A stretch of 32,000 bases of DNA, from positions 1,290,001 through 1,322,000 of the forward strand of contig NC_020409.1 of assembly GCF_000341895.1 (NCBI RefSeq), in the 5' to 3' direction. Numbering within the stretch: position 1 is the first letter of the stretch; every line of letters starts with the position of its first letter. This document shows, one piece after another, positions 170-25,892 of this stretch. The notes below the pieces were generated by a model. It made no database searches. It had not been told where the DNA came from and saw only the letters and a program-made list of their open reading frames with translations. The DNA comes from Pseudodesulfovibrio piezophilus C1TLV30. Its GTDB lineage: Bacteria > Desulfobacterota > Desulfovibrionia > Desulfovibrionales > Desulfovibrionaceae. Both the position numbers and the translations under genes were made by a program.

Positions 170-209
170 GATTCCCCACCTTCCATGAAGGGTGGGTGGG
201 GAATCTTTT
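170..209 (+). terminator. Hairpin plus T-run after the receptor gene (terminator or attenuator)
   Basis: gattccccacc (170-180) is the perfect reverse complement of ggtggggaatc (195-205). TTTT follows at 206-209. Confidence 0.5.
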
Positions 210-237
210 CTCTCATTTCTTTCTCGGGGAGGGGGAT

Positions 238-3969: not shown

Positions 3970-5138
3970 ATGCACACGATAAAAAACAACCCAATGTACT
4001 CGTTTCTGATCATCCTCACCATCTGTAGCACCGCCGGATTGCAGGCATGGGCCATCCTTTTTGACAACTTTGTGATCAATACAGCCGGGCTGACTGCTTC
4101 CCATGCAGGCATCCTTCAATCCATCAGGGAAATACCCGGCTTCCTGGCAATGTTCGCTGTATTTGTTGTTCTGATTATCAAAGAATACAGACTTTCGATT
4201 CTCTCCATCGCCATTCTCGGAGCAGGCGTTTTCATCACGGGCTTATTACCATCCTTTCCCGGCCTGATCTTCACAACCCTTGCCTCAAGTCTGGGATATC
4301 ACTATTTCGAGACCACCAGACAATCACTCACCTTGCAACATTTTAACCGAGTCCAGACCCCCATAGTCATCGGTCGCCAGATCAGCGTCAGTGCCATAAC
4401 CAGCATTGTGGTGGGCCTCTTCATTTATTTCGGTGCCAACTGTATTTCGAACATACATATGTACATGGTCTTTGGTGCTGCCATTTTTCTGGTTGCCTTT
4501 TTTTTTTATTTACCAAAAATCCGACAAAACCTTCCCGGCATACTCAAAAGAGGGGAATGGTATTCAAGAAAAAATACTGGCTGTTTTATGCACTCACTTT
4601 CATGGGAGGTGCCAGACGGCAGATATTCATAGCATTCGCGGCCTTCCTACTGGTCCAAAAATTCAAATTCTCCATTCAGGACATCTCTCTTCTCTTTCTC
4701 CTCAATAACACCATCAATTACTTTGTCGCCCCATTTATCGGACGAATTATCCCGCGAGTGGGAGAAAGAGCTGTCCTGTCCATTGAATACATCTTCTTGA
4801 TTATCGTCTTTATCTCATACGCACTGGTCGAGTCCAAGTCCGTGGCTATTGGTTTGTATGTCATGGACCATATCCTCTTCAACTTCAGCATCGCCATCAC
4901 AACGTATTTCCAGAAGATAGCGGAACCGGAAGATATCGCACCCAGTGCGGCTGTCGGCTTTACCATTAACCACATTGCCGCAGTGGTACTTCCCGTCGCA
5001 GGCGGCTACTTATGGATGATCGACTACAAAATTCCCTTCCTTGTGGGGGCAGGCACAGGTTTTCTCTCACTCTGTCTCGCCCAGTTCATCAAAGAAGCTC
5101 CCATCCCTTCCGGAGTGGAACTCAGTATCAAGACATAG
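3970..5138 (+). pseudogene. MFS-type 12-TM permease split by a -1 frameshift (track ORFs 3970-4632 and 4557-5138)
   Basis: Each ORF encodes about six hydrophobic helices. They are adjacent, on the same strand, and overlap in frames 1 and 3. Frame 3 is open across 4500-4559 (FFLFTKNPTKPSRHTQKRGM). One extra T in the T10 tract at 4498-4507 would therefore join both halves into a protein of about 390 aa. Confidence 0.55.
4498..4507 (+). repeat. T10 homopolymer inside the split MFS gene
   Basis: Read directly: gcc tttttttttt a. It lies just upstream of the point where the reading frame must change. Confidence 0.9.
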
Positions 5139-5213: not shown

Positions 5214-5755
5214 AAACACTCTGAAAAGGGCACTCTCGGCCCCTGCCAAGCGTATAATCAGGATAGTGAAAATAGGGATATCGCCCTATCGGGCATCCCA
5301 AAAAACCAACTCTATCTTGTTCGGACAGGAACCAAGCCTGATCAAATCCCCACTCGCTCCCGAAATAGTACATGTTGTTAGAAAATAAATCGGCAAGACT
5401 TCAGCCAGAGATATTCAGCGACTGCCCTTCGAAGAGGCGCACGAAGAACCTAGACAAGCCAGCTTGGCAGGTGCTTAAACAAATAGCCCTTTCCTTCAGG
5501 GACTAAGGAGATGAACAGATATGGCGATCCCCATTCGCTCTTCGGGCATGCCCACCGACAGCAGAGGGTGTACTCTGGTATTCATGCGCGGGCAGGGAAT
5601 CCAGCAATTCTTGACACACAATATTCCTCTATATTATTCAGGCTTTTCTATGAGGCATTTGGCAGTCTTTTTGCCTCAAGGAAATCTCATCCCGCCAGAT
5701 GCCGATTCCACAGTCTCTTATCAGCATATTCGAATCCAAAGGCCATCACATATCC

Positions 5756-7675: not shown

Positions 7676-7962
7676 TCTCACTCCAATGTCACCAAAAGGG
7701 GCGATAAGACTCCCTCTCAACTGATAAAAACCCCTTGGATTCACTCGCAGGGCGAACTCCCTTGACCACAACCGTTGTCATCTCTTCAGACTTGACAAAA
7801 GGAGGCCGCCAATTCATATGTTTCAAACGAATTGCGGGTGCATGATGCCCGCGCGTAAGCGTTAACGACATCCAACGCACTAACTTGTCCGTATCGGGAC
7901 AGGAAAGTGCGTTTTTTTGTGCCTTTCTGTATTCTGGTCGGATAATAAAATATGGAGGGCAT

Positions 7963-9135
7963 ATGCCTCACCTCTCTCTTGGCCGCAGCCTGTTACGAAT
8001 GGGTGCTGCAGTTTTCATCTCATACCTTTCAGTCGCCTTGGCTCTTCCTGTGATATCAGTCTATGTTAGGAGCGAATTCGGCTTTGACAATTGGCTCGGA
8101 GGCGTTGCTGTCGGGGTCGCTTTTATTTCGACAATCCTATCGAGAAACCATGCAGGCTTCTTTGCCGATGTCATCAGCCCTAAAAAGTGCACTATGGGAG
8201 GACTTTTCTGTTACATGATTGCAGCTGCCATCTGTTTGTTTTCCACATCGCCCTGGCTTGCCAAGCCTGTGGCCTACGCTGTCCTGATTGCTGGCAGGCT
8301 TGTCCTCGGCTTGGGAGAAAGCATGACCCTTGTCGGACTGACAAGCTGGCATCTCTCCTTGATCGGACCTCAGAGATCAGGGAAGATCCTCTCCATTCTC
8401 GGTATGGCGATGTACGGAGCATTTGCTGTAGGAGGCCCGATTGGGTTGTCTGTTTACGGAAAATATGGATTTGCTGCACTCATGTGCATTTCTTTTCTTT
8501 TGCCTCTTGCTGGAGGGATGCTACTCATTCGTACAAAGGATATTCTTCCTCAAAAGAATATCCCGCAACAAAGGGCTTTTTTCGGTATTATTCAAACAAT
8601 ATGGAAACAAGGTGCTGTCGTCTGTCTCCAAGGCGTGGGATTCGCCGTGCTGGGAGCCTTCATATCACTCTACTTCAAAAGCAAGGGGTGGCCTTTTGCA
8701 GGTCTCGGTCTGACCTGTTTCGGAACAGGCTTTGTCTTGAGTCGCATTCTCTTTGGCAGTTTACCGGATAAAATGGGGGGAACCCGGCTGGCGATGTATT
8801 CGTTGATGTGTGAGCTGACCGGACAAATACTGCTCTGGGCAGCTCCCAATGTGTACACCGCCTTGACCGGAGCTTTCCTTACGGGTCTTGGCTGTTCCAT
8901 GATCTTCCCTGCCATGGGGGTCGAGGTCATCAAACGTGTCCCCAAGGAATTGAGGGGAACGGCTTTTGGCGGTTTTGCCGCGTTTCAGGATCTCGCCTAT
9001 GCCTTTTCAGCACCACTTGCAGGTTTTTTAGCTGATGTCTCCGGCTATTCTTCAGTTTTCTTCGCAGGGGCCATGGCCGCAGCCATCGGAGGCATAATCA
9101 CAGTCTCCATGAATACGCCAAAGCAAAGCAGGTAA
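7963..9135 (+). CDS. MFS transporter, YhhS/YfcJ-like
   Basis: By eye these resemble E. coli YhhS/YfcJ: LSRNHAGFFADVISPKK, GRLVLGLGES, ISLYFKSKGW, FPAMGVEVIKRVP. ATG 7963 is preceded by GGAGGG at 7954-7959. The track start at 7885 adds an implausible leader. Confidence 0.8.
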   Translation: MPHLSLGRSLLRMGAAVFISYLSVALALPVISVYVRSEFGFDNWLGGVAVGVAFISTILSRNHAGFFADVISPKKCTMGGLFCYMIAAAICLFSTSPWLAKPVAYAVLIAGRLVLGLGESMTLVGLTSWHLSLIGPQRSGKILSILGMAMYGAFAVGGPIGLSVYGKYGFAALMCISFLLPLAGGMLLIRTKDILPQKNIPQQRAFFGIIQTIWKQGAVVCLQGVGFAVLGAFISLYFKSKGWPFAGLGLTCFGTGFVLSRILFGSLPDKMGGTRLAMYSLMCELTGQILLWAAPNVYTALTGAFLTGLGCSMIFPAMGVEVIKRVPKELRGTAFGGFAAFQDLAYAFSAPLAGFLADVSGYSSVFFAGAMAAAIGGIITVSMNTPKQSR

Positions 9136-9233
9136 GGAAAATCACTCTATCGCTTTATTGCTCTGATTCTGATTTCTTTTGCCCGACGTCACAATCCAGA
9201 GGTCTTGCGATGTTCAACAATCCCCGTATCAAG

Positions 9234-9280
9234 CAGGTAAGGATTTGGGTTTCAAATCACCAAAATTCTTACCTGTTTTT
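9234..9280 (+). terminator. Rho-independent terminator of the MFS gene
   Basis: caggtaag (9234-9241) pairs with cttacctg (9268-9275). The stem extends inward to about 17 bp with one mismatch and one G-T pair. TTTTT follows at 9276-9280. Confidence 0.7.
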
Positions 9281-9362
9281 CAAAGCAGAACAAACACTCT
9301 CCTCAATGAGTGAAGTTCCAGGAGTTGCAAGGACTGATTGAAAGCTCCATCTTCACAAAGGG

Positions 9363-10319
9363 CTAACGATAAAAATTTTTCCTGGAGAGATGGGGAAAGA
9401 TGGTGGGCATCGGCTGCCTGGAGCTGAACAACTGGGTACTAAAGTACCGTTCCGCTCTGTCCGGCAGAAGCGTTGCGACTGTCCAGTCCGGGTGAAGACT
9501 GGCAACCCTGGCGGCTGCAACAAGATTGGCCCCGGAAGAAATTCCAGCCATAACTCCCTGTGTGCGCGCCAGATCACTCGCACACCCAATGGCTTCGGCA
9601 TCATCAACCTCGCAAATTTCGTCAATAAGACTCAATTCAACGATCTCAGGAACAAATCCGTCACCAATACCCTCTATACTATGCGGTCGAACAGCATGCC
9701 CCAACAAGGCAGAACTGCCTTTCGGTTCCACTGCCACAATATGAACATCAGGATTATGATTTCGTAAATACCTGCTCACTCCCATCAAAGTCCCCCCGCT
9801 CCCGACACCGCTTACAAAACAATCAACGCACCCGTTCAAATCGTTCCACAGTTCCGTTGCCGTCGTCTGATAATGAGCTTCGATATTCTCCGAGTTTGCA
9901 AACTGATTCAGGGTAAACGTCTCCGGTTGACTCTCAAGAAGACCGCAAAGGGCTTTCACTGCTCCTTCAACACTCTCCTCGGCAGGGGTCAGCACCACTT
10001 CGGCCCCCAAAAACTTCAGTATTTTCTGACGTTCGGCACTGGCATTTTCCGGCATACATATTGTGACCCTGTAGCCTCTGGATGCACCGATCATGGCGAT
10101 GGCAATACCAGTATTTCCACTGGAGGCTTCAGCAATATGCATCCCTTTTCGCAGTTTTCCGCCCTGTTCGGCATGGGCTATGATATGCCAGACCATCCGA
10201 TCCTTGATGGACCCGCCAGGATTCAGGAACTCCGCCTTGGCAAAGAGACAGCATCCGTCCACCTGCACTTCAATACAAGGAGTATTGCCGATACAATCCC
10301 AAAGTTGCTGCACAGACAT
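9363..10319 (-). CDS. PLP-dependent cysteine synthase / beta-substituted alanine synthase family protein (CysK/CysM fold)
   Basis: PLP-lysine motif NPGGSIKDR, SSGNTGIAIA loop, GVGSGGTLMG glycine loop, IEGIGDGFVP. RBS AAGGAAG lies upstream of the ATG at 10319. Confidence 0.85.
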   Translation of the reverse strand: MSVQQLWDCIGNTPCIEVQVDGCCLFAKAEFLNPGGSIKDRMVWHIIAHAEQGGKLRKGMHIAEASSGNTGIAIAMIGASRGYRVTICMPENASAERQKILKFLGAEVVLTPAEESVEGAVKALCGLLESQPETFTLNQFANSENIEAHYQTTATELWNDLNGCVDCFVSGVGSGGTLMGVSRYLRNHNPDVHIVAVEPKGSSALLGHAVRPHSIEGIGDGFVPEIVELSLIDEICEVDDAEAIGCASDLARTQGVMAGISSGANLVAAARVASLHPDWTVATLLPDRAERYFSTQLFSSRQPMPTIFPHLSRKNFYR

Positions 10320-10340
10320 CCTACTCTTCCTTCATGCTTT

Positions 10341-11201
10341 TTATCGAGTTCTGCCCAATGAGGATTCATGTTCCGCGACAAATCGATAGCGATACATACG
10401 TGTCATACGCCGCACGGCCGGGACCCAACTCACTAACGCTGCCCATCGCCATCGTCGCAATGGGCAAGAAAAATAATGATAATCTTCCAGAAACTGTATT
10501 GAGCTCGACCAGTTGACCAACTCAAACCCCGAATCTATTCCCCACAAAAACGGCGCATTTCCGCATTTTGAAACGGTATCGTGAAGAGCGGTGTTTCCCA
10601 CAAGAGCCTTTCCGATTGATTCGAACACGAACTCTGCTCCAGGAAACCGCTCCGCAAGACTGCATACGAGCACCCGAACACTTTCCGGTTGCAGGTACAT
10701 CAATAATCCTTCTGCCAAAAACAAAATCGCCCTGTTCTTCGGAATGACATCAAGCCACTCCATATCCAGGGCCGACCCCGCGATAAAATAGTGTCGAGCA
10801 TCTTCAGCGAAAAACAGACGACGAACCTGTATCACTTCAGGAAAGTCAAGCTCAATCCACTCTGCACAACCATTATCCATACGGAAGGATCTGGCATCCA
10901 GACCGCACCCCATATTCACTATGATGCCATCGGGAAAATCAGTAAGGAATCGCCCCACGACTCTGTCCAGCACCCGCGTACGCACCGCTATGCCAATCTG
11001 AGTACGCCAACCATTGTCGGCATACCGCGCATAATCATAGGGAACTTCCTGCATGATACGCACGGCATACGCATCGGATATCAACCCATCTCTGTGGCCT
11101 GTTTCCATTGCACGCGCCCAAACAGGAATGAGTAAGGTCTCACTCACTCCGGCAAAGGGAGCCAATGTCTTTGCGCCATCCGACAAGGCTTCAACACTCA
11201 T
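10341..11201 (-). CDS. Class I SAM-dependent O-methyltransferase, LCMT/TcmP-like (carboxyl/polyketide O-MT family)
   Basis: The layout is as in leucine carboxyl methyltransferase / TcmP-type enzymes: IVNMGCGLDARSFRM (SAM motif I), WIELDFPEVIQVRR, and ILFLAEGLLMYLQPESV. The start is 1 nt after the upstream TGA. Confidence 0.7.
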   Translation of the reverse strand: MSVEALSDGAKTLAPFAGVSETLLIPVWARAMETGHRDGLISDAYAVRIMQEVPYDYARYADNGWRTQIGIAVRTRVLDRVVGRFLTDFPDGIIVNMGCGLDARSFRMDNGCAEWIELDFPEVIQVRRLFFAEDARHYFIAGSALDMEWLDVIPKNRAILFLAEGLLMYLQPESVRVLVCSLAERFPGAEFVFESIGKALVGNTALHDTVSKCGNAPFLWGIDSGFELVNWSSSIQFLEDYHYFSCPLRRWRWAALVSWVPAVRRMTRMYRYRFVAEHESSLGRTR

Positions 11202-11202
11202 A

Positions 11203-12072
11203 TCATGAGTCCTTTTTCACATCATTATCCGATGCGTCTTTCCGTTCATTCGCGAGCAAGCATTCACGCAGTGTCAAAACCACCATTTTACATATGGCGG
11301 GATGGCATAGCAGCCACATGTGGCTGACCGGCGGTGTCACCCGAACTTTCCACCCTGATTTTTCCGGTGGAATCATGGCATCTTCCGGATGAATGATATT
11401 GTCGGTACGTGAATACAAGGCCATGCATGGAAGAGTTGCCGGTCTTTCTTCCGCCTCGAAACGGACGAAGAAGGCTGAACCATAGGCCATGGTTTCATCA
11501 AGACCATTCTTCATTTTTCCAAATAACTTTGATGTCTTGGATCCTCGATGAGGACAACCAAGAGTAACCCCACCCAGTACCGAAATTTCCGGTTGATCTG
11601 TTGAGTGCAACCACAAACGGATAATCAATCCTCCAAGACTGTGACCGACCAGCAAAGGCCGCTCATTTGGATAGATATCCGAAATCTCATCCAAAGCTTC
11701 ATTCACCACATGCCCCAGCTGTTCCATCGAACGCCTGCCTGCTGTGTAGGCATGACAATAGACACGGGTAAATCCACTCGCCTTCAACCACCATCTGAGA
11801 GGCCACCACACCCCTGTATGTTGCTGAGCACCATGAATCAGAACAACCGGGGGCATGTCTCCTGCCCCCCGAACCTTCCGCCGCGCAACAAAGTGCAACG
11901 GAGCTGAAACCAGGAAAAACACCAATCCACTCAGAGAGTAGGCAACACTCCGCATAAAAGGAAACAAACCGTGCGGCGGGGGAATATCGAGTCTTGAATT
12001 GCAGGCTTCGTAATGAAACAGCAATGTTGTCCCCAATGAAAAGAGCAAAGGGAAAATAAAGAGCAAAATCAT
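11203..12072 (-). CDS. Membrane-anchored alpha/beta hydrolase (lipase/esterase-like)
   Basis: Two N-terminal hydrophobic segments. VVLIHGAQQH oxyanion region, nucleophile elbow GHSLGG, and a GCPHRGS motif as in class 2 lipases. ATGA overlap with the upstream gene at 12069-12072. Confidence 0.75.
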   Translation of the reverse strand: MILLFIFPLLFSLGTTLLFHYEACNSRLDIPPPHGLFPFMRSVAYSLSGLVFFLVSAPLHFVARRKVRGAGDMPPVVLIHGAQQHTGVWWPLRWWLKASGFTRVYCHAYTAGRRSMEQLGHVVNEALDEISDIYPNERPLLVGHSLGGLIIRLWLHSTDQPEISVLGGVTLGCPHRGSKTSKLFGKMKNGLDETMAYGSAFFVRFEAEERPATLPCMALYSRTDNIIHPEDAMIPPEKSGWKVRVTPPVSHMWLLCHPAICKMVVLTLRECLLANERKDASDNDVKKDS

Positions 12073-13085
12073 CTCGTTTCCTCACCCTGATCTGTTGAGA
12101 AAAGCCACTCGTTCCGTCTATTTTCTGCACCGTTGACCGACATCAAGCCTGAAGCGGCCAACAGTCTGTAACAATGATAGTGAGCGGTCACAGCCGCAGG
12201 CAACTTCAGTTTGCCTATGACTTTCGGCAAGTGAAAACGTGTACAGGCAAGCTTGACTACACCATCCATGATTTTTACCGCCTCGTGCAAAGCCCAACCG
12301 TTTTGAAGAAAGAATTCCCCAATATCACCGGGGAGTCCGTACATTCTTAGAGCCGGATGCCCGGTAAATCGTTCCGGCCGTCTGTTGTCAAAGGCTGCCC
12401 CCTTTTCATCCAATGCATCAAAAATCAAAAGAGCGCGAGGGCATGCTCTGCGGACCGCAGTTAACAGGATACTCTTCTGTGCCACGGGCAAACAATCCAT
12501 CACACCATCAAAAATGATGACATGATTCCTGTCCGGGTCACCAAGCACCGCTGGAAAATCGCACATGGACGAAACGGTATGCTGTTGCACGACAGCAAAT
12601 TCTTCTGCAACCGGCGCACTCTTGAACAAACGCCGTTTCAATTCAGCAATAACCGGCAATTCACACTCATGCCAGCTCACGTCCCGCTTCAAATCTGTTC
12701 TTATTCTGGGCCAACGGAATTCCGCACCACTTCCCACATTCCAGACAGAAACAGGTTCATTTCCCTTCCATGTCGCCAAAGTTTTTTTCAGCATGGAATC
12801 AAGCACCATGGAGCGACAAACAAGACTTGGAGCCACCATACGATGCAAAACTGGAAAAGCTCCCGGCTGCCCCCCGCACTGCTCCATCAAGGATTCAGCC
12901 AGATATTCACGCCTCTTTCCACCGGTCCAATCCCCGGTCTGCGCTTTTGCCAGAAGAGTCAGCCAGCCTCTCCTTTCTTCCAACGAACTGAGTCCATACA
13001 ATTGCTTCCAGGAACAGGAAGATAAGACTCCTTCTGCCCCTCCCTTGTCGACATCGGCCCCAGCGAACCGGCCTGCATCAAGCAT
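12069..13085 (-). CDS. Divergent LCMT/TcmP-fold methyltransferase-like protein with degenerate SAM motif
   Basis: Same block order as the neighbouring MT: VWNVGSGAEFRWPRI, WHECELPVIAELKRRL, VIIFDGVMDCLPVAQKS. Motif I is GSGAEF rather than GCGLDA. I place the start at ATG 13085 (TGATG overlap with the upstream stop, GGAGGAGG 7 nt upstream) rather than the TTG at 13088. Confidence 0.5.
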   Translation of the reverse strand: MLDAGRFAGADVDKGGAEGVLSSCSWKQLYGLSSLEERRGWLTLLAKAQTGDWTGGKRREYLAESLMEQCGGQPGAFPVLHRMVAPSLVCRSMVLDSMLKKTLATWKGNEPVSVWNVGSGAEFRWPRIRTDLKRDVSWHECELPVIAELKRRLFKSAPVAEEFAVVQQHTVSSMCDFPAVLGDPDRNHVIIFDGVMDCLPVAQKSILLTAVRRACPRALLIFDALDEKGAAFDNRRPERFTGHPALRMYGLPGDIGEFFLQNGWALHEAVKIMDGVVKLACTRFHLPKVIGKLKLPAAVTAHYHCYRLLAASGLMSVNGAENRRNEWLFSTDQGEETR

Positions 13086-14170
13086 CAAGCCACCTCCTCA
13101 AGTTGTACTCCACCTTTTTGCAGTGAATCGAGAAAAGACTTCGCATTCACAGCCTCTCCCAAATAATGCACCCCTGGCCGAGCATCACCAGAAAGAATGA
13201 AATGTGCCGTGTGCGCAGCGACCAACCCGGTAATCCAATGGTTACGTGATTCAGAAAGGGAAAGGACAAAGCTCTCGCCTGATTCAGCCGTGACAACAGC
13301 GCGAAGGATACCGATTGGCCCTTTCTGCTGAGCGTCCTTGTTGATACCCGCACGCAACAAACGCGCCGCCTGTTTCCGCCAACCACGCATGAATACCTTG
13401 ACGAAAACAAGAGACAACCGTGTATACGGTCCGACCAGAACCAACCCTGTACGAAAACGGACATCAGGCCTTTCCACCGCAAGAGGGGCTGATGGGGCAT
13501 TGAATATCCATGACGCAACCTGTCTGCTATCCGGCAACTGTGGCATATCCACGGAAGAGTTAACTCTGAACATGGACCGCCCCTGCCATATCCCCTGATC
13601 GAACCATCCGAACTTCATGTCTGAAAAAATATGCCACACCATATCCCGAGCAGATGCCAGAGACCATGTATCGCGAGCCCCACAATAGAGCGTCACGTCG
13701 CGGGCCTTTCCCTGTCGAGCCTCTGCCTGTTCCAGCGCATACCGGACAAACACCTCAGATAATCCGGGCATCCACCCGGCGGAAAGGACATGACTGCGTC
13801 GGAGGTTTCGCACCTGTTCATCATGCTGTTGCAGGCTCTCCCGCAACAAAGCATACCCCCCGACATCAACATAATGAGCGCCGGATTCCAGAGCGATTTT
13901 CGCCACTGCCGGGCCTGTTTCGCAAGAAGGCCCGGTGCAGTTCATGATAATCTCACAATCATCAAATTGACCGACCGCCCCGCTGACGACATCGCATTGA
14001 CGAACCTCCGCTCCTGACAACCGAGAAGCACTATCCTGCAAGCGCCCAAGAGAACGTCCGCCCAATACTATGGATATATCGCCAAATTTCTCCAATTCCT
14101 CGCAAACAACCTGCCCGATATCACCACTGCCACCGAGTACAGCAACTTTTCTCTTTTCCCTGTTCATCAT
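13085..14170 (-). CDS. Saccharopine dehydrogenase-family NAD(P)-binding oxidoreductase
   Basis: N-terminal Rossmann motif KVAVLGGSGDIGQVV. The length and the central GWMPGLSE-type segment are typical of Sacchrp_dh_NADP proteins. The start directly abuts the upstream TAA (TAAATG). Confidence 0.75.
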   Translation of the reverse strand: MMNREKRKVAVLGGSGDIGQVVCEELEKFGDISIVLGGRSLGRLQDSASRLSGAEVRQCDVVSGAVGQFDDCEIIMNCTGPSCETGPAVAKIALESGAHYVDVGGYALLRESLQQHDEQVRNLRRSHVLSAGWMPGLSEVFVRYALEQAEARQGKARDVTLYCGARDTWSLASARDMVWHIFSDMKFGWFDQGIWQGRSMFRVNSSVDMPQLPDSRQVASWIFNAPSAPLAVERPDVRFRTGLVLVGPYTRLSLVFVKVFMRGWRKQAARLLRAGINKDAQQKGPIGILRAVVTAESGESFVLSLSESRNHWITGLVAAHTAHFILSGDARPGVHYLGEAVNAKSFLDSLQKGGVQLEEVA

Positions 14171-15370
14171 TTATTCCTCTGCATATGCAACATGAACATT
14201 CAACGCTCTGACCCCTGTCAGGACATCAGGCAAAAAGGGTATCGCCGAAGATGTCGCATGCACTCCGGCCGGAACAGACTTCGGATCTTGCAAAAATGCA
14301 TGGATGAATGAAGCGGCATAGGCCGCTGTCAATCCGAATGTGGTTTCCCCGGTGGCAAAAGCGGTCATTTTTCTATCTGCATACTGCGCCCGTATCATCA
14401 AAATGGACCGTGTCATATTGGTTCCGTTGCTGCTCCCCAGGCCATGCATTGTGTAAAAGACCCTGGCCAAACGATGTGTTACTGCGGGAAAACGATCCGC
14501 AGGGAACCGACGCAGGAATGCTGCCATAGCTGGCGGCATTCCTTGGAAGTGCATACGATAGGAGATATTATGGGCAGGGAGCAAAGCCCCACGCTCATGC
14601 ATCGATTCAATCAAAAAAGCTTCTGCGGAAAAACAATGCGTGGCCGTGACAGAGCGCCCATGGGTGACAAAGACTTCTTTCTTTTGACTGCCGGAATCAT
14701 CTGCATCCATCCAAACTTCCCGACCCTCTCGCAGTTCACAGACTTTGGGGGTCAATCCATGCAGCATGGTCATGGTGGAGGCAAATCCAGCATCTTCATT
14801 ACCTCCGGCAAAGAGACGAACATCAACCTTTTCGCATTCCCCGGCACAGGCTGCCAACCGGCAGAGAAGCGCAGTGCTCAATCCGGGATTGACACCCATA
14901 CCTGTAAATACATGGCTCCCGCGCAGGACTGCATCTTCATGCAATGACAGGATCTCACGTGCGACATGGGGATCATCATTAATATCCAGACACGTGACTC
15001 CTGCTCGAATACAAGCACGATGACAGGACGCACGAAATGTCGAAAATGGCCCAAGTGCAATAACCACAGCATCGTAGCTGGAAAGTATGTCCGATAAATC
15101 CTTACCGCCACGTTCCTTTTCGGCAGACGCTCCGGGCCGGGGCGCAGTGCTTGGTGAAAAGCCAGAAGGATCTGTGAAAGCCATACCCCGAGAGGAGTCA
15201 GGGGCAACATCCATGACAACCCACTGTGCACCGAATTGCGCCGTGCGCTGATTGCTGTTTCGAGTCGCAGCATGAACTGTCGCGTGTGGCATTAATCGCA
15301 ACAAACTGCCCACAAGACGCCGGCCAGTACTGCCACTCCCACCGAGTGCGAGAATCCTCGGATGTATCAT
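14171..15370 (-). CDS. Saccharopine dehydrogenase-family oxidoreductase, second paralogue with low-complexity insertion
   Basis: Rossmann motif RILALGGSGSTGRRLV and GMGVNPGLS. Start ATG 15370 overlaps the upstream TGA (ATGA) and follows GGAGGAA. The 42 codons added by the track ORF (up to 15496) overlap the thioesterase gene. Confidence 0.65.
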   Translation of the reverse strand: MIHPRILALGGSGSTGRRLVGSLLRLMPHATVHAATRNSNQRTAQFGAQWVVMDVAPDSSRGMAFTDPSGFSPSTAPRPGASAEKERGGKDLSDILSSYDAVVIALGPFSTFRASCHRACIRAGVTCLDINDDPHVAREILSLHEDAVLRGSHVFTGMGVNPGLSTALLCRLAACAGECEKVDVRLFAGGNEDAGFASTMTMLHGLTPKVCELREGREVWMDADDSGSQKKEVFVTHGRSVTATHCFSAEAFLIESMHERGALLPAHNISYRMHFQGMPPAMAAFLRRFPADRFPAVTHRLARVFYTMHGLGSSNGTNMTRSILMIRAQYADRKMTAFATGETTFGLTAAYAASFIHAFLQDPKSVPAGVHATSSAIPFLPDVLTGVRALNVHVAYAEE

Positions 15371-16509
15371 GATTCCTCCGTAATATCTTGAATAAACCGC
15401 AGAACAGCCTCGGCAAATGTCTCTGCATGCGTCTGAACAAAAAGGTGCCCACCCGGAGTATCGACAAAATGACACAAGGAAAAACACCGTTTCCAAGAAG
15501 GAGAAAATTCGACGACAAACGGATATTCTTCACTCTCCCCTGTTACAACAAGACAAGGTATTTCCATACAATCAGTCCCAAAATCATATCTTTCCATACG
15601 CCGAACAGCTTGTTTGTATTCCACCCAATAGCGGGTCTGTCCCTTCTCAGACATATCCGTCAGAAGCGGAGCATAAATTTCTTTCAAATACTCCAGCGTG
15701 GCATCATCCTCCGAATCGGAACTCCACCGGGAACGCGCGTAGACAAGCTCTTGCGCATCAGGGGGGGTAGCTCCGGCCACCACGACTCCGTGCACTTTCT
15801 GTCCCCCGACTCTCATCTCGCGAGCAACGGCGTGCGCCATATATGCGCCGTAGCAATGTCCCAACAAGATAACCGGCCGATTGTCATCCAGGTTGTCCAC
15901 CAAGATTCGCGCGAGGCTCTCGATTGGCTGGAGCGGCCCCGTATCGTCTGAGGACGCGTAGCGGGCAATCCGTACATCGCATTGCCGCCCAAGGTGGTTA
16001 GCAACTTTCTGAAACATATGAGGCTCTCCGCCAGCATATGGAAAACATAAGACCAACGGTCGCGTTCGCCCTTTTTCTTCAGAGTACAGACGTACCCAGC
16101 CAGCTTTTTCTGAGATATCCACGCAACGTTTCCATTGAAGAACGGGTGCCTGAACCGCGCCCCGCTCCCTTTTCCCCGTCGCGAGAGATGCTGTCATACT
16201 GGCAATACTTGGCTGGTGCACGGATTCCGCAAGAGTATCGGTTCCTGCAAAATCCTGCTCTACAAGCTGTTGAAATCGAATCATATCCAAAAGATTTTCC
16301 GCATAGTTCGTCAAAGGCACATCCGAAAACAATTCCTTTTCCGGTATATCAAAGACTTGCACAGCACGACGACGCAGCACTGTTTCGATGGATTCATAGC
16401 TCCATAATGAGTTGGAAAATCCAGTCTTCAGTCCAGAGATGGTATTCGAATCATTTTTAACAACGGAATCAGCACCATCTGACACGGGGAAAAAATATTT
16501 TTTAGCCAT
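15367..16509 (-). CDS. Carrier-protein-like N-terminal domain fused to a type II thioesterase-like alpha/beta hydrolase (Cys nucleophile)
   Basis: TE motifs: LVLCFPYAGGEPHMF, nucleophile elbow LLGHCYGAYMAHAVA (Cys219, TGC at 15853-15855), and C-terminal DTPGGHLFV. Residues ~36-100 look like an ACP/PCP, but the DSL serine position reads ENL. Confidence 0.8.
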   Translation of the reverse strand: MAKKYFFPVSDGADSVVKNDSNTISGLKTGFSNSLWSYESIETVLRRRAVQVFDIPEKELFSDVPLTNYAENLLDMIRFQQLVEQDFAGTDTLAESVHQPSIASMTASLATGKRERGAVQAPVLQWKRCVDISEKAGWVRLYSEEKGRTRPLVLCFPYAGGEPHMFQKVANHLGRQCDVRIARYASSDDTGPLQPIESLARILVDNLDDNRPVILLGHCYGAYMAHAVAREMRVGGQKVHGVVVAGATPPDAQELVYARSRWSSDSEDDATLEYLKEIYAPLLTDMSEKGQTRYWVEYKQAVRRMERYDFGTDCMEIPCLVVTGESEEYPFVVEFSPSWKRCFSLCHFVDTPGGHLFVQTHAETFAEAVLRFIQDITEES

Positions 16510-16526
16510 GACATACCACTCACATA

Positions 16527-17195
16527 TTAGATGGAAAGAAAAGTGAGCCCTGTGAAAATGACAAGCATGACGATCACAACAGGTTTCGCCAAAAAAGCCG
16601 GAACATCCTGGCGGTAGCGTTCGTAAATATCCCCGAAACTCGGTTCAAGTACCGCTTTTTCTTCAATATATGCAGTCGCGAAGAGAGTCATTGCCAGAAA
16701 CGGCAACAAAATTGCCGTATAGGTGGCCCCGGTGACCAGAACAATACCACTCGTACCGATGAAACGCGCGACGATCACGGGATGGCGAACATAGCCATAC
16801 GCACCGTTGGTAATAAGCTGCGCAGGACTCGCATAATCACAGGCGGTGGCTTTGGCATTTCGTTGCATCAAAACGACATAGGAACACACTCCGCAAAGAG
16901 CCAGCGGGAGACCCAACGCCGCTTGAAACTGACGCCCCTTGGCTGCCAACGCCAAGTCTGGAGCCACCAACACGCCACTCGTATCGCCAAGAACCGGTTG
17001 AGGAAGAAACGGCATGACAAACCAGACGCCAACGACACTCACTGTCAGGAACACCTTCAGATATTTCGGCATGTGACGAGATGGAAACCCCAGACTACGC
17101 CGTCTTTTTTCCATGGCGAAATACCACCAGTAGGAACCGACACCAGCAAAACTCACCAAACACAACAGAATCTGGACACCCAACATTCCAGCCAC
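16527..17195 (-). CDS. Integral-membrane methyltransferase, ICMT/PEMT family
   Basis: Multi-TM protein with the family signature LITNGAYGYVRHPVIVARFIG ... IEEKAVLEPSFGDIYERYRQDVP. The GTG start at 17195 has GGAG 5 nt upstream. ATG 17186 is an alternative start. Confidence 0.75.
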   Translation of the reverse strand: MAGMLGVQILLCLVSFAGVGSYWWYFAMEKRRRSLGFPSRHMPKYLKVFLTVSVVGVWFVMPFLPQPVLGDTSGVLVAPDLALAAKGRQFQAALGLPLALCGVCSYVVLMQRNAKATACDYASPAQLITNGAYGYVRHPVIVARFIGTSGIVLVTGATYTAILLPFLAMTLFATAYIEEKAVLEPSFGDIYERYRQDVPAFLAKPVVIVMLVIFTGLTFLSI

Positions 17196-17284
17196 TTTGT
17201 CTCCATATCGTAAGAGTCAAATACCCACCTGAAAATCACCCAGGGCCCGACAAACAGGCTTATTTCGAGTATGATCAAAGCTCA

Positions 17285-17312
17285 ATTTTATGAAAATGAA
17301 TTTCATTCTCAA
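17285..17312 (-). promoter_or_regulatory. Sigma70-like promoter of the 8-gene operon with an embedded Fur-box dyad
   Basis: The minus strand reads TTGAGA (17312-17307), a 16-nt spacer, then TAAAAT (17290-17285). The spacer region is the near-palindrome TGAAAATGAAtTTCATTCTCA (17291-17311), which matches the classical Fur box GATAATGATAATCATTATC at 14 of 19 positions. Confidence 0.6.
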
Positions 17313-17405
17313 TTAATGGCGAGCATGTTATTTACTCAACTTATAAAAAATCAACTCTTGATCGCTAACAAAACAGACCACATTTCTATCATTTTAGAAT
17401 TGATT

Positions 17406-18473
17406 TTAACGGTGATACCCAATCTGATATTTTTTCGGGGTGATTCCAAAAACCTTCATGAACGATTTGGTAAAGTGGCTTGGGCTGGAAAAACCGCACA
17501 GATAAGTTATTTCAGTCATATTTTTCTCTCCCTGTTCCAACAGTTTCTTACTGTACTCCAGTCGTTCATCCCGCATGATTTCAAAAACTGTTTTACCATA
17601 TACAATGCGGAAAACAGCGTTCAGTCTCCCCTTGTTTATTCCAGCATTCCGAGCAAGTTCGCGTAGGCTGGGCACCGCCGTGAAATCAGAACTTATACGT
17701 CTGTACACGGCTTTTGCCGCTTCCCTTTCCTCCTGGGTGACAGGATGGTTCTGGAACACATCCTCCCCAGAAGACGAAGAAAACCCCCGGAGCAATAAAT
17801 ACAGAAGTTCCATTTTTTTGCAGGCCAAATATATGTCCCACAGTCTCCCACGAGGTATTTTGGAAATCACTTGATGCACAGTCACTTGCAAGGAGAGCGG
17901 CAAAGAGATCTTCTCCCACAACACTTCATTGGAATGCAGGAAAAGAGACCGTAATTTTTTGAGAAAAGGGCATTGTGTCGCCTGCTCAAGGTCCGGCAAT
18001 ATATCCTTGTCCATTCGCAACGCGACAGCTTGAAATGGGGCCCCTTTCTCGACAAGCGCTCTCCCGCACATATGTTGCATGCAGGAAACCACACCTTCTC
18101 CTCTGGAAAGAGAAAACGAGACGCCGGAATGCACTGAGCTTTCTTCCATTCCCCCCTGAAGCTCACCCGAGATAGGATGGTAACAAGAGCAGGAAGCATT
18201 CACCAGCACATGCCCAGATGTGCACAGGACAAATTCAATGGCATCGCTGGCTATGGAAAAATCACAATGCTGAAATTTTTCATTCGGTTGGCTGTCATAA
18301 ATATGAAGAGACACGCCTGGAAATCCCAAACTGTTTTGATGCGAACGGGCCACGGTCCCCGGAGGAATCCACGTTTCCCGATTTGGTTTCAACCGCTCAC
18401 TGACCGTATGCCCAGGGGAGAGTCCGTTTTTTCTCCCTCTCACGACATCCCAACCATTCTCTCTATGCCGCAT
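17406..18473 (-). CDS. AraC-family transcriptional regulator (siderophore-cluster type, cf. PchR/YbtA by context)
   Basis: C-terminal double HTH: LRELARNAGINKGRLNAVFRIVYGKTVFEIMRDERLEYSKKLL...ITYLCGFSSPSHFTKSFMKVFGITPKKY. I place the start at ATG 18473 (GGAG 6 nt upstream, 58 nt after the HlyD stop). The track ORF extends to 18761 and overlaps the HlyD gene. Confidence 0.85.
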   Translation of the reverse strand: MRHRENGWDVVRGRKNGLSPGHTVSERLKPNRETWIPPGTVARSHQNSLGFPGVSLHIYDSQPNEKFQHCDFSIASDAIEFVLCTSGHVLVNASCSCYHPISGELQGGMEESSVHSGVSFSLSRGEGVVSCMQHMCGRALVEKGAPFQAVALRMDKDILPDLEQATQCPFLKKLRSLFLHSNEVLWEKISLPLSLQVTVHQVISKIPRGRLWDIYLACKKMELLYLLLRGFSSSSGEDVFQNHPVTQEEREAAKAVYRRISSDFTAVPSLRELARNAGINKGRLNAVFRIVYGKTVFEIMRDERLEYSKKLLEQGEKNMTEITYLCGFSSPSHFTKSFMKVFGITPKKYQIGYHR

Positions 18474-18531: not shown

Positions 18532-19836
18532 TCAGAGCACGGCATCCCAATCAGCTGGAAGGACATCCGGCAACTCCAAATGTGTGGCAATTTGCTGTCC
18601 CTCTTCCAGACCTGCGACCACTTCAGTAACGAACAAGCCATCAAGTCCAGTTGTGACTTGTACGGGGTACACCCCATCCCCCTCACAGACAAAAACAACA
18701 TGCTTGTCACCAACCCATTTGAATGCCGCATTCGGCACACAAAGCACATGTTTTTTCTCAACGACTGACACGTAACATCGAGCTGTCATTTCCGGTCTGA
18801 GCAAATGAGCATCTTCCGGCGATACCCGTACGAGCGCTCTGTAATAGACAATATTATCCCGCAATTCGGGACCGGGGTGAATCAGAGCCACCTGTCCGGA
18901 AAACTCCTTTTCCGGATAGGACTCAACAGTGTATTTCACTGCAGCCCCTTGTTTGACAGACCCGATATCGTTTTCATCAATCAGGATCTGCAGCTCCAGC
19001 CTCTCTGTGTCTATGATGGTAATGAGATTCGCCACCTGCAATCCTGCCACTACAGTTTCCCCTTGCCGCGCAGTGATTTCACTCACCACACCAGACATGG
19101 GACTGACAAGGTGTGCGTATGAGAGACGCGTTGTGCATTGTTTCAGGGCCGCTTCCGCTTCAAGAACAGCATCTTCAAGAGAAGGTATCTCATACTGAAA
19201 TTCACTTTCGAGTCGTTCTTTGGTACTGCGCCTCGCCACAACCGTCTGCTCTGCGACGCGAAGCGTGCGGATGGTGTCGTCCAGCTTTTCTTCGGCCACG
19301 TGTCCGCTTTGTGCCAGTTTCTTGTTTCGGGCATAGGTCTGCGCTGCATATTTTTTTTCAACTTCCGCTTCATGAAGGCTGGCCGCCGCTTCTTTTATCT
19401 GGAGAGGATACTTCATCTTCTGTTGCATGAGCTGCGTTTTCAATTTCTGGATTGTCGCCCTGTTCTGCTGGCAAATGAACTCCTGCTCGCGTCCGTCAAG
19501 TTCGGCAATAAGCTGTCCTTTGGTGACCGCATCACCCAATTTCACGTACAATTCGGAAATTACGCCCGTAAATCGAGTCCCGAGTTTGACAACAGCTCCT
19601 TCCTCAGGACGGACAACGCCTGTGGCCAGTATTTCCTTTTTGACATCACCATATTCAATATATGCGGTCTCCAGTACATTGACCCCTTCCACCTCTTTAC
19701 CACTGACACGGGTAATGACGACAATGCCACCGACAAGAACGACAGGAATAATCCAGAGAAAACGCTTTCCTGCCATCGGACGAAGCTTTCCCAGGAACCG
19801 CTTGAAAAGTGAAACGACATGGGGCGTTTCAGACAT
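18532..19836 (-). CDS. HlyD/membrane-fusion-protein family periplasmic adaptor
   Basis: N-terminal TM segment FLWIIPVVLVGGIVVI and lipoyl-like motif LGDAVTKGQLIAELD. A long coiled-coil segment rich in Q/E/K/A is followed by a beta-barrel region. GGAG RBS upstream of ATG 19836. Confidence 0.8.
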   Translation of the reverse strand: MSETPHVVSLFKRFLGKLRPMAGKRFLWIIPVVLVGGIVVITRVSGKEVEGVNVLETAYIEYGDVKKEILATGVVRPEEGAVVKLGTRFTGVISELYVKLGDAVTKGQLIAELDGREQEFICQQNRATIQKLKTQLMQQKMKYPLQIKEAAASLHEAEVEKKYAAQTYARNKKLAQSGHVAEEKLDDTIRTLRVAEQTVVARRSTKERLESEFQYEIPSLEDAVLEAEAALKQCTTRLSYAHLVSPMSGVVSEITARQGETVVAGLQVANLITIIDTERLELQILIDENDIGSVKQGAAVKYTVESYPEKEFSGQVALIHPGPELRDNIVYYRALVRVSPEDAHLLRPEMTARCYVSVVEKKHVLCVPNAAFKWVGDKHVVFVCEGDGVYPVQVTTGLDGLFVTEVVAGLEEGQQIATHLELPDVLPADWDAVL

Positions 19837-25822: not shown

Positions 25823-25892
25823 GATAACTCCTTTCTCAACTCTCGACAGTGAAAGACGATTGACGACAACTCCAAGGCGAAAACCCACCTCT

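Follow-up and report, generated by a model that had tools for sequence, protein, structure and literature searches.

A 32,000-nucleotide stretch of the Pseudodesulfovibrio piezophilus C1TLV30 genome (NC_020409.1, positions 1,290,001 to 1,322,000; hereafter the window, in whose own coordinates all positions are given unless a contig is named) contains an operon of eight genes, termed g1 to g8. Together with a neighbouring non-ribosomal peptide synthetase (NRPS), a phosphopantetheinyl transferase (PPTase), a TonB-dependent receptor, ABC and MacA-type transporters and an AraC-family regulator, the operon probably constitutes a cluster for the synthesis of a small, lipid-tailed metallophore, as judged from gene content, predicted regulatory sites and conserved gene neighbourhood. 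This assignment is preferred over that of an antibiotic or a membrane lipid because wiring to metal starvation recurs in independent lineages and because a TonB receptor and exporters are always carried with the biosynthetic genes. In organisation the cluster is best placed as an uncharacterised variant of the lipo-initiated NRPS metallophore clusters that respond to metal starvation, with a regulator and transporter layout similar to that of yersiniabactin, and its tailoring chemistry, as deduced from gene context, would be unprecedented for metallophores.

The window displays eight consecutive minus-strand open reading frames (ORFs), which span positions 17195 down to 9363 and follow each other closely. 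Genes g1 and g2 are separated by a 17-nt gap (16510-16526), g2 and g3 overlap in an ATGA (15367-15370), g3 and g4 meet in TAAATG (14168-14173), g4 and g5 in TGATG (13083-13087), g5 and g6 overlap in a second ATGA (12069-12072), g6 and g7 meet in TGATATG (11199-11205) and a 21-nt gap separates g7 from g8 (10320-10340). Shine-Dalgarno-like GGAGG or GAGGA motifs precede g3, g4, g5, g6 and g8. On the same strand, a sigma-70-like promoter, TTGAGA-16-TAAAAT, is located at 17312-17285 within the 210-nt spacer between the AraC gene and g1; it agrees with the consensus at 10 of 12 positions and is the top match in the region 9000-17500. A weak terminator-like hairpin, identified by consensus match only, lies 3' of g8 (9295-9312, minus strand), and a scan of the window against Rfam revealed no RNA family. 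The same DNA is present on three Joint Genome Institute (JGI) metagenome contigs. The products of g4, g5 and g8 match proteins of P. piezophilus, a sulfate-reducing deltaproteobacterium, at 100% identity, and a megablast search of the complete Escherichia coli genomes with the operon gave no match. An earlier note on this DNA, made from the letters and ORFs alone, had described eight joined minus-strand genes fronted by a promoter with a Fur dyad at 17285-17312; all junctions and gaps agree with that description, and the promoter match coincides with two overlapping Fur boxes. The eight genes are thus predicted to form one Fur-repressed transcription unit.

Rodionov et al. (PMC545781) described the delta-proteobacterial Fur box as WTGAAAATNATTTTCAW and found that Desulfovibrio promoters typically carry two Fur boxes overlapping at a 6-bp shift. 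A scan of the window with this consensus, allowing up to 3 mismatches, revealed 6 matches where 0.93 were expected, a number reached by none of 100 shuffled sequences, and three promoter regions account for five of them. Upstream of g1, two boxes shifted by 6 bp (17290-17306, 1 mismatch; 17296-17312, 3 mismatches) overlap the promoter-like TTGAGA-16-TAAAAT, with 15/19 agreement to the Escherichia coli box. Upstream of the unit comprising the receptor, ABC, adaptor and AraC genes, two boxes (25900-25916 and 25906-25922, 3 mismatches each; E. coli box 14/19) display the same 6-bp shift. The divergent spacer between the PPTase and NRPS genes contains a box of the delta-proteobacterial type at 27645-27661, while the E. 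coli box matches at 16/19 positions (27641-27659) and has neighbours shifted by 6 bp. The E. coli-type consensus (15-16/19 here) was set aside, since the delta-proteobacterial consensus fits better. The sixth delta-type match (22342-22358, 3 mismatches) lies inside an ABC transporter coding sequence and probably reflects chance, as probably does a 15/19 E. coli Fur-like match at 742-760 inside the FecE-type ATPase gene. Fur control of the P. piezophilus cluster is well supported in silico.

Signs of metal regulation extend to related loci. In a Desulfovibrio sp. metagenome-assembled genome (MAG; locus L004) and in Nitratidesulfovibrio sp. (L005), where GC content is 67-69%, the AraC-g1 spacer contains an AT-rich Fur-like site that is the only one in 21 kb. 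A position weight matrix derived from five sites gave no match in L011-L014. In L099, a sequencing-run assembly contig of 61% GC, a scan with Zur box consensus sequences taken from PMC2895646 and PMC2706843 revealed the Zur box GAAATGTTATAACATAAC at 2341-2358, matched in none of 100 shuffled sequences. The site lies 23 nt upstream of the NRPS start, and a Fur-family (Zur-like) regulator gene is divergently oriented (L099 1741-2381); DUF1826 and CobW/COG0523 genes are found near the cluster (L099 19209-21115). This arrangement suggests that L099 carries a zinc-starvation-regulated version of the same pathway. Metal-responsive repressor sites, as expected at the promoters of NRPS metallophore clusters, are therefore predicted at three Fur-type promoters in P. 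piezophilus, in the L004/L005 spacer and at the Zur box of L099. Taken as a whole, the cluster family is predicted to be wired to metal starvation in independent lineages, through Fur and FeoAB in Desulfovibrionaceae and through Zur and COG0523 in the distant member.

The linkage between the operon and the synthetase is most evident in compact relatives of the cluster. In D. desulfuricans (CP077745.1; L014) a TetR gene is followed by genes for a TonB-dependent receptor, an NRPS with the domain order fatty acyl-AMP ligase (FAAL), thiolation (T), condensation (C), adenylation (A), T and thioesterase (TE), then g3-g4-g5-g1-g6-g7-FeoA-FeoB-HlyD-MacB, and the genes from the NRPS to g4-g5 overlap. 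The feoA and feoB genes of this operon lie between g7 and the exporter genes (L014 14467-16691); in Halodesulfovibrio aestuarii (L018) feoB adjoins the NRPS gene (L018 4116-6167). The metagenome contig L019 has the order of D. desulfuricans through g7, followed by an HlyD adaptor and an ABC ATPase, and a second metagenome contig, L012, has the order NRPS-g3-g4-g5. L011, like L099 a sequencing-run assembly contig, contains the end of an NRPS, g3, a fusion of g4 with g5, a PEMT-type g1 and HlyD. In L099 the Fur-family regulator gene, divergent from the Zur box, is followed by NRPS-g3-g4-g5-PPTase-PEMT-MT-LCM-TonB-dependent receptor-MFS. L004 and L005 share the arrangement ABC-ABC-HlyD-AraC-g1 to g7, with proteins 40-62% identical to those of the window and with no g8, and L004 carries ExbB-ExbD-TonB after g7. 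Overall, g3-g4-g5 are translationally coupled and come immediately after a FAAL-T-C-A-T-TE synthetase in L012, L019, L099 and D. desulfuricans; all of these except L012 have g1 and g7 there too, and g6 accompanies them in L019 and D. desulfuricans. Genes g3 to g5 are linked to the synthetase wherever the length of a related contig allows this to be seen, g1 and g7 follow on all contigs that reach so far, and g1, g6 and g7 are linked to it on most. The TonB receptor gene precedes the synthetase in D. desulfuricans and L019 and follows the tailoring genes in L099.

The family is rare. The g5 family has 4 proteins and the g4 family 11 among 5.8 billion clusters, and the g5 profile retrieved 6 representatives at E<1e-30 among 1.84 billion proteins and 2 loci in a scan of 185,579 species represented by one genome each. 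Cultured strains with the cluster are P. piezophilus, D. desulfuricans CP077745 and Nitratidesulfovibrio sp. 1201_IL3209. A metagenome scan with the g4 profile returned 80 loci, 79 of which (L020-L098) are stand-alone genes from peat, bog and soil, ~30% identical and lacking other cluster genes; these homologues were set aside as informants on the operon, as no other cluster gene lies alongside. The surroundings of a g4 homologue in a Candidatus Angelobacter MAG (L015) include genes for an AMP-ligase-ACP-acyltransferase, for Hcp and for a TonB receptor.

The NRPS gene of P. piezophilus starts at 27723 on the plus strand and continues beyond the window end at 32000, so that the window holds the first 1426 of 2101 residues. 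The full protein was taken from metagenome contig L008, which is identical over a 2.8-kb overlap (checked through the TetR protein and a 30-residue match to the NRPS start). It displays the architecture FAAL-T-C-A-T-TE with a Ser thioesterase. The first adenylation-type domain has fatty acyl-AMP ligase as its top NCBIfam match (315 bits), and the C domain, which has a DHxxxDG motif, is no cyclisation domain. As the synthetase comprises two modules, its core product would be one fatty acid amide-linked to one alpha-amino acid, rather than a lipopeptide. The specificity code of the second adenylation domain, A2, is DMTNMGEVAK; the code DMTN[M/L]GEVAK, or a variant starting with DMAN, recurs in all five synthetases with a readable A2. 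It fits no standard code, agreeing at 6/10 positions with Asn and at 5/10 with Thr (reference codes from PMC3547906), and has an acidic residue at position 322. A 564-bit match of A2 to LgrA was rejected as a specificity clue, since it merely adds up two A-domain matches of ordinary strength, at 274 and 283 bits. An Sfp/HetI-type PPTase is encoded at 26749-27441 on the minus strand (ACPS family; HetI model 107 bits), and the window thus contains the modular NRPS and PPTase expected of an NRPS metallophore cluster.

The g2 product (15367-16509, minus strand) comprises a free-standing thioesterase (PF00975, 65.9 bits) preceded by a 150-residue N-terminal region. Its nucleophile is a Cys (GHCYGA), as in the cis-acting thioesterases of the ancestral-type synthetases (GYCYGA, GYCFGA and GYCYGG), while the synthetase of P. 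piezophilus itself ends in a thioesterase with a Ser nucleophile (GYSFGG). In its thioesterase part g2 shares 41% identity with the cis-thioesterase of the D. desulfuricans NRPS as against 29% with that of P. piezophilus, and g2, which overlaps g3, occupies the position in which the synthetase ends in the compact clusters. The protein may accordingly be read as what is left of an ancestral synthetase after loss of the upstream modules, a T-TE tail that has become detached. The N-terminal 150 residues align collinearly with a T domain, with Asn or Asp at the position of the phosphopantetheine Ser, but they contain no GGxS serine, show no PF00550 match at E<=0.01 and reach only 6% hhalign probability against T domains. 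Of the earlier proposal that a carrier-like domain is fused to a thioesterase, the thioesterase therefore stands, whereas a functional carrier was rejected on these three grounds and the resemblance is retained as positional homology; the region would be at best the dead relic of a carrier. A single-sequence AlphaFold (AF2) model of g2 was uninformative, with a predicted local distance difference test score (pLDDT) of 33. In sequence g2 is most similar to type II thioesterases (6vap, SrfTEII, RifR and YbtT), with ObiF1 a weak match at E 3.5e-5. NRPS thioesterases with a nucleophilic Cys are uncommon; examples are those of ObiF and SulM, which form beta-lactones and beta-lactams (PMC11298585, PMC6668435). 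This residue is found both in g2 (GHCYGA) and in the cis-thioesterases of the relatives, GYC(Y/F)G(A/G); the Gln-Cys-Asn motif, which PMC11298585 puts forward as a criterion together with a relocated catalytic Asp, is absent, the motif in these proteins being H/Y-C-Y.

Genes g3 and g4 encode two adjacent oxidoreductases of the saccharopine dehydrogenase fold. The g3 product (14171-15370, minus strand), with a GGSGSTG loop, scores 21.6 bits against PF03435 (Sacchrp_dh_NADP), just under the cut-off of 25.1, while g4 (13085-14170, minus strand) scores 41.5 bits. An hhalign comparison of g3 with the g4 family gave a probability of 98% (E 2e-13 over 337 columns), which identifies the two as full-length distant paralogues. 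The start of g3 at 15370, giving 399 residues, is upheld, since a 373-residue gene call in metagenome copies drops the GGSGSTG loop and the L004 orthologue also has 399 residues. Residues ~60-95 of g3 form a low-complexity insert rich in Ser, Pro, Ala and Gly within the NAD(P)-binding domain, which is common to the L004 and L005 orthologues and absent from the D. desulfuricans-type proteins. An AF2 model of g4, built with 10 homologues, reached a pLDDT of 91 and displays a two-domain fold. Structural similarity search with Foldseek revealed that the closest matches are the carboxyspermidine dehydrogenases 8deb and 8h4z (template-modelling (TM) score 0.75), followed by L-lysine dehydrogenase 3abi, saccharopine reductases and the saccharopine dehydrogenase domain of human AASS. 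Sequence searches of the PDB matched the g4 profile to 4rl6, 8deb and 4ina at E 1e-9 to 1e-11, and g3 to 3abi alone. Membership of the saccharopine dehydrogenase family is thus indicated for g4 by both score and model, and for g3 through its hhalign relation to g4. A more specific assignment as carboxy(nor)spermidine dehydrogenase fails: identity to 8deb and 8h4z is 16-17%, no NCBIfam equivalog model fits and the window contains no decarboxylase. The structural relatives of g4 all use NAD(P)(H) to form or cleave a C-N bond by way of an imine, and homology takes the prediction no further than this type of chemistry.

The remaining core genes encode methyltransferases and a hydrolase. The g5 product (12069-13085, minus strand) is a divergent protein of LCM methyltransferase fold; its P. 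piezophilus copy gave no Pfam match, and its S-adenosylmethionine (SAM) motif is GSGAEFR where the orthologues have GAGFDAR. The orthologues carry PF04072 and g5 aligns with g7, and on this basis g5 is classified as a divergent member of the LCM family. In L011 a single 705-residue protein (P0008, L011 3207-5324) is a natural fusion of a g4-type enzyme with a g5-type methyltransferase, which argues for g4 and g5 acting in succession on one substrate. The g7 product (10341-11201, minus strand) is an LCM/TcmP-type SAM methyltransferase (PF04072, 56.9 bits; TIGR00027, 58.5 bits) whose GCGLDAR motif conforms to the GxGxD(A/T)R pattern of the family, and its orthologues are 46-54% identical in every cluster variant that extends that far. 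The g1 product (16527-17195, minus strand) is an integral-membrane methyltransferase of the PEMT/ICMT family, with about 5-6 hydrophobic segments and scores above the cut-offs of both families (PF04191, 33.6 bits against 25; PF04140, 27.6 bits against 24); its scores against NCBIfam equivalog models are all far under their cut-offs. The gene starts at GTG 17195 or, alternatively, at ATG 17186, the latter giving 219 residues, and orthologues are found in L004, L005, L011, L014, L019 and L099. The g6 product (11203-12072, minus strand) is a membrane-anchored alpha/beta hydrolase with a GHSLGG motif, one to two N-terminal hydrophobic segments and matches to Abhydrolase_6, Hydrolase_4, PGAP1 and Palm_thioest, and is present in L004, L005, L014 and L019.

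The last gene, g8 (9363-10319, minus strand), encodes a pyridoxal phosphate (PLP) enzyme of the CysK fold (PALP, 250 bits). It passes the cysKM subfamily model narrowly (348.8 against 344.15 bits) and fails both the CysK equivalog TIGR01139 (339.1 against 350.95 bits), having an SSGNTG loop rather than TSGNTG, and the SbnA model TIGR03945 (232.4 against 349.95 bits). The nearest relatives, 56-65% identical, form a Desulfovibrionaceae clade named by NCBI only as cysteine synthase family. In this clade the substrate loop is often SSGN instead of TSGN, and the clade differs from ordinary CysK at positions 46, 93, 201, 202 and 216, which are otherwise 85-100% conserved among 100 CysK sequences. 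Both readable contexts of g8 relatives, L017 and L018, are metallophore-like clusters with NRPS, TonB and AraC genes. In L017 (8001-10051) the g8-type gene overlaps by one base the gene for a 381-residue Sacchrp_dh protein, and the pair is flanked on one side by a block of PPTase, type II thioesterase, MMPL and TonB receptor genes and on the other by AraC and a hybrid of polyketide synthase (PKS) and NRPS of more than 3200 residues; L017 is a different cluster that reuses the pair of CysK-like and Sacchrp_dh enzymes. In H. aestuarii the g8 relative lies between PPTase and AraC genes; close by are FeoB and a synthetase that shares 59% identity with its P. piezophilus counterpart. A housekeeping cysK that merely neighbours the operon was rejected in view of the clade contexts and the substitutions in the active-site region. 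As g8 is absent from L004, L005, L014, L019 and L099, it is placed as a genuine accessory gene of such clusters, predicted to be lineage-specific here and outside the conserved g1-g7 core. It appears that in P. piezophilus a tailoring operon of the D. desulfuricans type is combined with a set of synthetase, PPTase and CysK-like genes of the Halodesulfovibrio type. The Pfam families anticipated in the earlier note hold for g1, g2, g4, g6, g7 and g8; the assignment of g3 to PF03435 stands through its paralogue g4 despite the sub-threshold score, and that of g5 to PF04072 through its orthologues and not through a match of its own.

Between the operon and the synthetase lie the regulatory and transport genes. 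Next to g1, on the minus strand, are genes for an AraC-family regulator of 355 residues (17406-18473; HTH_18 and HTH_AraC), syntenic in L004 and L005, for a MacA/HlyD-type periplasmic adaptor (18532-19836), whose orthologues are 54-62% identical in every variant extending that far, and for two fused permease-ATPase ABC transporters of 629 and 589 residues, similar to MsbA and YbtPQ (19877-23535; ABC_membrane and ABC_tran). The AraC protein may be comparable in kind to the AraC-type regulators FoxR, YbtA and PchR; an AraC-type FoxR has been described in Desulfovibrio Fur regulons (PMC545781). These genes are followed by a TonB-dependent receptor with plug and barrel (23618-25822, minus strand; 734 residues from ATG 25822, with the ORF extending to GTG 25888), 50% identical to the receptor that heads the D. 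desulfuricans operon, and by a TetR-family regulator (26058-26642, minus strand), a TetR gene being found before the receptor also in L013, L014 and L019. Receptor and exporter genes, as expected of an NRPS metallophore cluster, are thus present in the form of the receptor and the MacA/ABC set, and are conserved in L014, L019 and L099.

Further genes flank this core. A candidate neighbour at 196-3925 (plus strand) encodes FecE, FecB and a fused FecCD-type ABC importer with no receptor beside it within the window. It is followed on the plus strand (3970-5135) by an MFS gene apparently split into overlapping frames, 3970-4632 (220 residues, no Pfam match) and 4347-5135 (MFS_1), which is called as genes of 220 and 178 residues in the metagenome copies and may be a frameshifted or pseudogenised exporter. 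At 5699-9135 (plus strand) an AT3-SGNH O-acyltransferase (658 residues) and an MFS transporter (416 residues) converge on g8; the latter (7885-9135) shows a weak match to the model of the staphylopine exporter CntE (27.5 bits). Beyond the window, approximately 0.2 kb past the NRPS stop (L008 1277-2407, minus strand of the contig and the same strand as the NRPS; approximately window 34.2-35.4 kb), lies a 376-residue PP-loop ATPase with an SGGKDS motif, which matches the WbuX N-acetyl sugar amidotransferase family at 106 bits, under the cut-off, as well as DUF7411 and PAPS_reduct, and is followed by a MacB-type permease. The ATPase could contribute amidation, amidination or thiolation of the product; none of its type was noticed in the other cluster variants. 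The earlier note had placed the operon between two TonB-dependent uptake systems, but the window contains one receptor (23618-25888) and its left flank is the Fec-type importer, which has none. The PPTase and the Fur-controlled, lipo-initiating NRPS named there are both recovered, in the HetI match, the FAAL domain and the Fur box of the spacer, while the lipopeptide product is not sustained by a synthetase of two modules. Also in agreement with that note, a Pfam scan of the window ORFs revealed no IucA/IucC, isochorismate or salicylate synthase, 2,3-dihydroxybenzoate (DHB)-AMP ligase, N-hydroxylase or nicotianamine-synthase-like match.

Clusters for amphiphilic, lipo-initiated siderophores, such as those of marinobactin and amphibactin, cupriachelin, serobactin and taiwachelin, combine a fatty-acid start with Fur repression, a PPTase, an exporter and a TonB receptor. 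The P. piezophilus cluster resembles the marinobactin/amphibactin type in its lipo-initiated NRPS, predicted Fur repression, PPTase, exporter and receptor, and in the amphiphilic product expected. It differs from them in having one amino-acid module and no enzymes forming hydroxamate, beta-hydroxyaspartate or catechol groups, in the strictly anaerobic host and in a tailoring set (two PF03435 enzymes, two LCM proteins, one PEMT/ICMT enzyme and one hydrolase) that is not known to have a counterpart there. With the Cnt systems for opine metallophores (staphylopine, pseudopaline and yersinopine) it may share NAD(P)H-dependent formation of a secondary amine and a scope for divalent metals, as well as control by Fur and/or Zur, Fur-type members of the family being represented by P. 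piezophilus and Zur-type members by L099. In contrast with Cnt, neither CntL (nicotianamine-synthase-like) nor CntM (octopine-dehydrogenase family), the pair that defines those systems, is found among the window ORFs; the fold here is that of saccharopine reductase and carboxyspermidine dehydrogenase, and an NRPS and a fatty acid are involved. NRPS-independent siderophore (NIS) systems are likewise excluded, no ORF of the window having an IucA/IucC Pfam match.

At the level of individual enzymes, the g4 model matches PF03435 enzymes in its two-domain fold (TM 0.69-0.75 to 8deb, 8h4z, 3abi, 1e5l and 2axq), in a GxGxxG loop, in a conserved Arg after beta2 and in a G-x-x-P-G-x-S motif at the domain junction, and departs from them in its 13-17% identity, the lack of a decarboxylase partner, the presence of two adjacent divergent paralogues, the methyltransferase fusion in a relative and the NRPS operon setting. 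The system shares with SbnA/SbnB, which provide L-2,3-diaminopropionate for staphyloferrin B, a CysK-fold PLP enzyme in a metal-starvation-regulated cluster and, in L017, an NAD(P) dehydrogenase partner, but g8 fails the SbnA model, the fold of the candidate partner differs from that of SbnB and g8 is absent from most variants. The EDDS (ethylenediamine-disuccinate) pathway is a related aminopolycarboxylate pathway beside SbnA/SbnB. The organisation recalls that of yersiniabactin in the AraC regulator, the two fused permease-ATPase ABC proteins, the TonB receptor and the type-II-like thioesterase, though cyclisation domains, PKS and salicylate synthase are lacking, and the AraC-type regulator and the delta-type Fur boxes in overlapping pairs parallel the Desulfovibrio Fur/FoxR regulon (PMC545781). 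A Bilophila thiazole cluster (PMC11934131) was rejected as a match, being a different, pyochelin/yersiniabactin-like system, and literature searches, outside whose scope MIBiG lay, retrieved no characterised cluster with this gene set.

The pathway by which these enzymes might produce a metallophore is proposed with modest confidence for the individual steps of g1 to g8. The FAAL domain would load a fatty acid, the C domain would acylate the amino acid bound to the second T domain, and the acyl-amino acid would be off-loaded with the Cys-thioesterase g2 acting in trans. The g3 and g4 enzymes would then perform NAD(P)H-dependent imine chemistry, coupling an amine reductively with an aldehyde or a keto acid, to yield opine- or carboxy-polyamine-like donor arms with nitrogen and carboxylate groups suited to divalent metals such as Fe(II), the metal to which FeoAB in the relatives would point. 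Carboxylates may be methylated by g5, g7 and the membrane enzyme g1 and the esters removed around export by the membrane-anchored g6, in a mask-and-unmask logic comparable to that of BioC and BioH, and g8 would supply a beta-substituted alanine building block in the P. piezophilus lineage. Export would proceed through the MacA adaptor and the ABC pumps, and the metal complex would return via the TonB receptor. The earlier suggestion that the operon tailors the product of, or supplies building blocks to, an uncharacterised, iron-regulated metallophore pathway of the lipopeptide type is accordingly upheld in its main part by the NRPS linkage, the Fur boxes and the FeoAB and Zur features of the relatives, but has to be amended with regard to the lipopeptide and to the inclusion of g8 in the core.

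Several observations weigh against a metallophore. All functional assignments amount to guilt by association, and with g3 and g4 merely 13-17% identical to solved relatives the reaction type is a family-level guess. No recognised enzyme forming catechol, hydroxamate, alpha-hydroxycarboxylate or thiazoline/oxazoline ligands is found among the annotated window ORFs. Carboxylate methylation by LCM or ICMT enzymes would destroy metal donors unless the esters were later removed, and g6 is missing from L099, so that an obligatory unmasking esterase is not universal. The receptor scores 202.5 bits against the siderophore-receptor model TIGR01783, under the curated cut-off of 223.5. The D. desulfuricans locus has no Fur box at >=13/19 and one weak delta-type match, equalled in 28 of 100 shuffles, which could be chance. 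A different allocation of roles, in which g3 and g4, here joined by g8, make a non-proteinogenic amino acid for A2 and the methyltransferases act on the released lipoamino acid, would retain the metallophore and is a possibility of some substance, if clearly the less probable arrangement. Conceivable routes are a diamino acid formed by reductive amination of a semialdehyde, in reversal of Lys-6-dehydrogenase chemistry, and an SbnA/SbnB-like beta-replacement followed by oxidative cleavage. It would account for the non-standard A2 code, whose acidic residue 322 could pair with a side-chain amine, and agrees with the standing of L-lysine dehydrogenase 3abi among the best structural matches of g4 and as the sole PDB sequence match of g3, with the overlap of a g8-type and a Sacchrp_dh gene in L017 and with the frequent SSGN loop of the g8 clade in place of the TSGNTG of ordinary CysK. 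Against supply of a free amino acid, the g4-g5 fusion P0008 argues for consecutive steps on one substrate, D. desulfuricans-type clusters display the same A2 code with no CysK-like gene in the operon and g8 is absent from most clusters; moreover, g8 scores far better as CysK/CysM (348.8 bits) than as SbnA (232.4 bits).

Two further explanations dispense with metal chelation. In one, the Cys-thioesterase would release an N-acyl-alpha-amino-beta-lactone or a beta-lactam, as ObiF1 and SulM do, making the product an iron-regulated antibiotic or inhibitor and no chelator. The sulfazecin pathway employs a 2,3-diaminopropionate precursor, which might here come from a CysK-like enzyme. It is for such beta-lactone and beta-lactam warheads that Cys-thioesterases are chiefly known, a point that also tells against the metallophore, and the nucleophilic Cys that is the hallmark of the ObiF and SulM thioesterases (PMC11298585, PMC6668435) is conserved in g2 and in all ancestral-type cis-thioesterases; the ObiF1 product is likewise an N-acylated single amino acid, and in ObiF1 and SulM, as here, such an acylated amino acid is held on the last carrier (PMC6668435, PMC11298585). 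This explanation is nevertheless considered quite improbable, since the Gln-Cys-Asn motif proposed as diagnostic of the SulM type is absent, g2 is closest to type II thioesterases, with ObiF1 only at E 3.5e-5, and is a separate protein beside a synthetase that in P. piezophilus ends in a Ser-thioesterase; furthermore, a warhead would leave the metal-uptake context unexplained, namely the dedicated TonB receptor, the FeoAB genes within an operon and the control by Fur and by Zur in lineages independent of each other. In the other, to which a slighter chance still is given, a methylated lipoamino acid resembling methylated ornithine lipids or N-acyl amino acid methyl esters would stay in or on the envelope under metal starvation and, rather than chelating metal, could serve to wet or disperse particles of metal sulfide, or to remodel the outer membrane. 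A membrane lipoamino acid is indeed built from one fatty acid and one amino acid, the membrane-anchored hydrolase is accompanied by three methyltransferases, of which one is of the integral-membrane PEMT/ICMT type, and the distant g4 homologues of peat and soil stand alone, at least one of them beside an AMP-ligase-ACP-acyltransferase lipid gene. However, a TonB receptor is encoded in every full-length variant, which together with the flanking import-type genes (FeoAB, ABC pairs and ExbBD-TonB) implies uptake of a released molecule, the MacAB/HlyD-type exporters are conserved as well, and the Fur and Zur wiring would again lack an explanation.

Under the metallophore reading, the cluster bears on a question raised by the comparative analysis of Desulfovibrio Fur regulons, which in 2004 identified siderophore transport genes of the TonB, ABC and AraC types but no biosynthetic pathway in two genomes, and which posed a novel pathway against uptake of compounds made by others (PMC545781); knowledge of Desulfovibrionia natural products was described as very limited as late as 2025 (PMC11934131). 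The cluster provides a concrete candidate for a biosynthetic pathway in Desulfovibrionaceae other than those two genomes. Its enzymology is of interest in its own right, comprising PF03435 enzymes in an NRPS pathway, a trans-acting Cys-thioesterase and a CysK-like clade with an altered active-site loop. If the product chelates Fe(II) or soft divalent metals, it would bear on the iron supply of sulfate reducers under sulfide, on metal-sulfide corrosion and on competition in gut and sediments. In its boldest form, which is put forward as speculation and is rather doubtful, the proposal holds that a lipid-anchored metallophore for divalent metals, for Fe(II) where habitats are sulfidic and anoxic, is made by sulfate reducers themselves, with a zinc-tuned sister system in another lineage, that the paired carboxyspermidine-dehydrogenase-fold enzymes add opine- or carboxy-polyamine-like nitrogen and carboxylate donors to an acyl-amino acid, that methyl esters mask these donors and are removed again around export and that the TonB receptor delivers the metal complex to FeoB. 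Were this true, the chemistry of the donor arms would be new to metallophore biosynthesis, and the long-held view that sulfate reducers depend on Feo and on siderophores of foreign origin would have to be revised.

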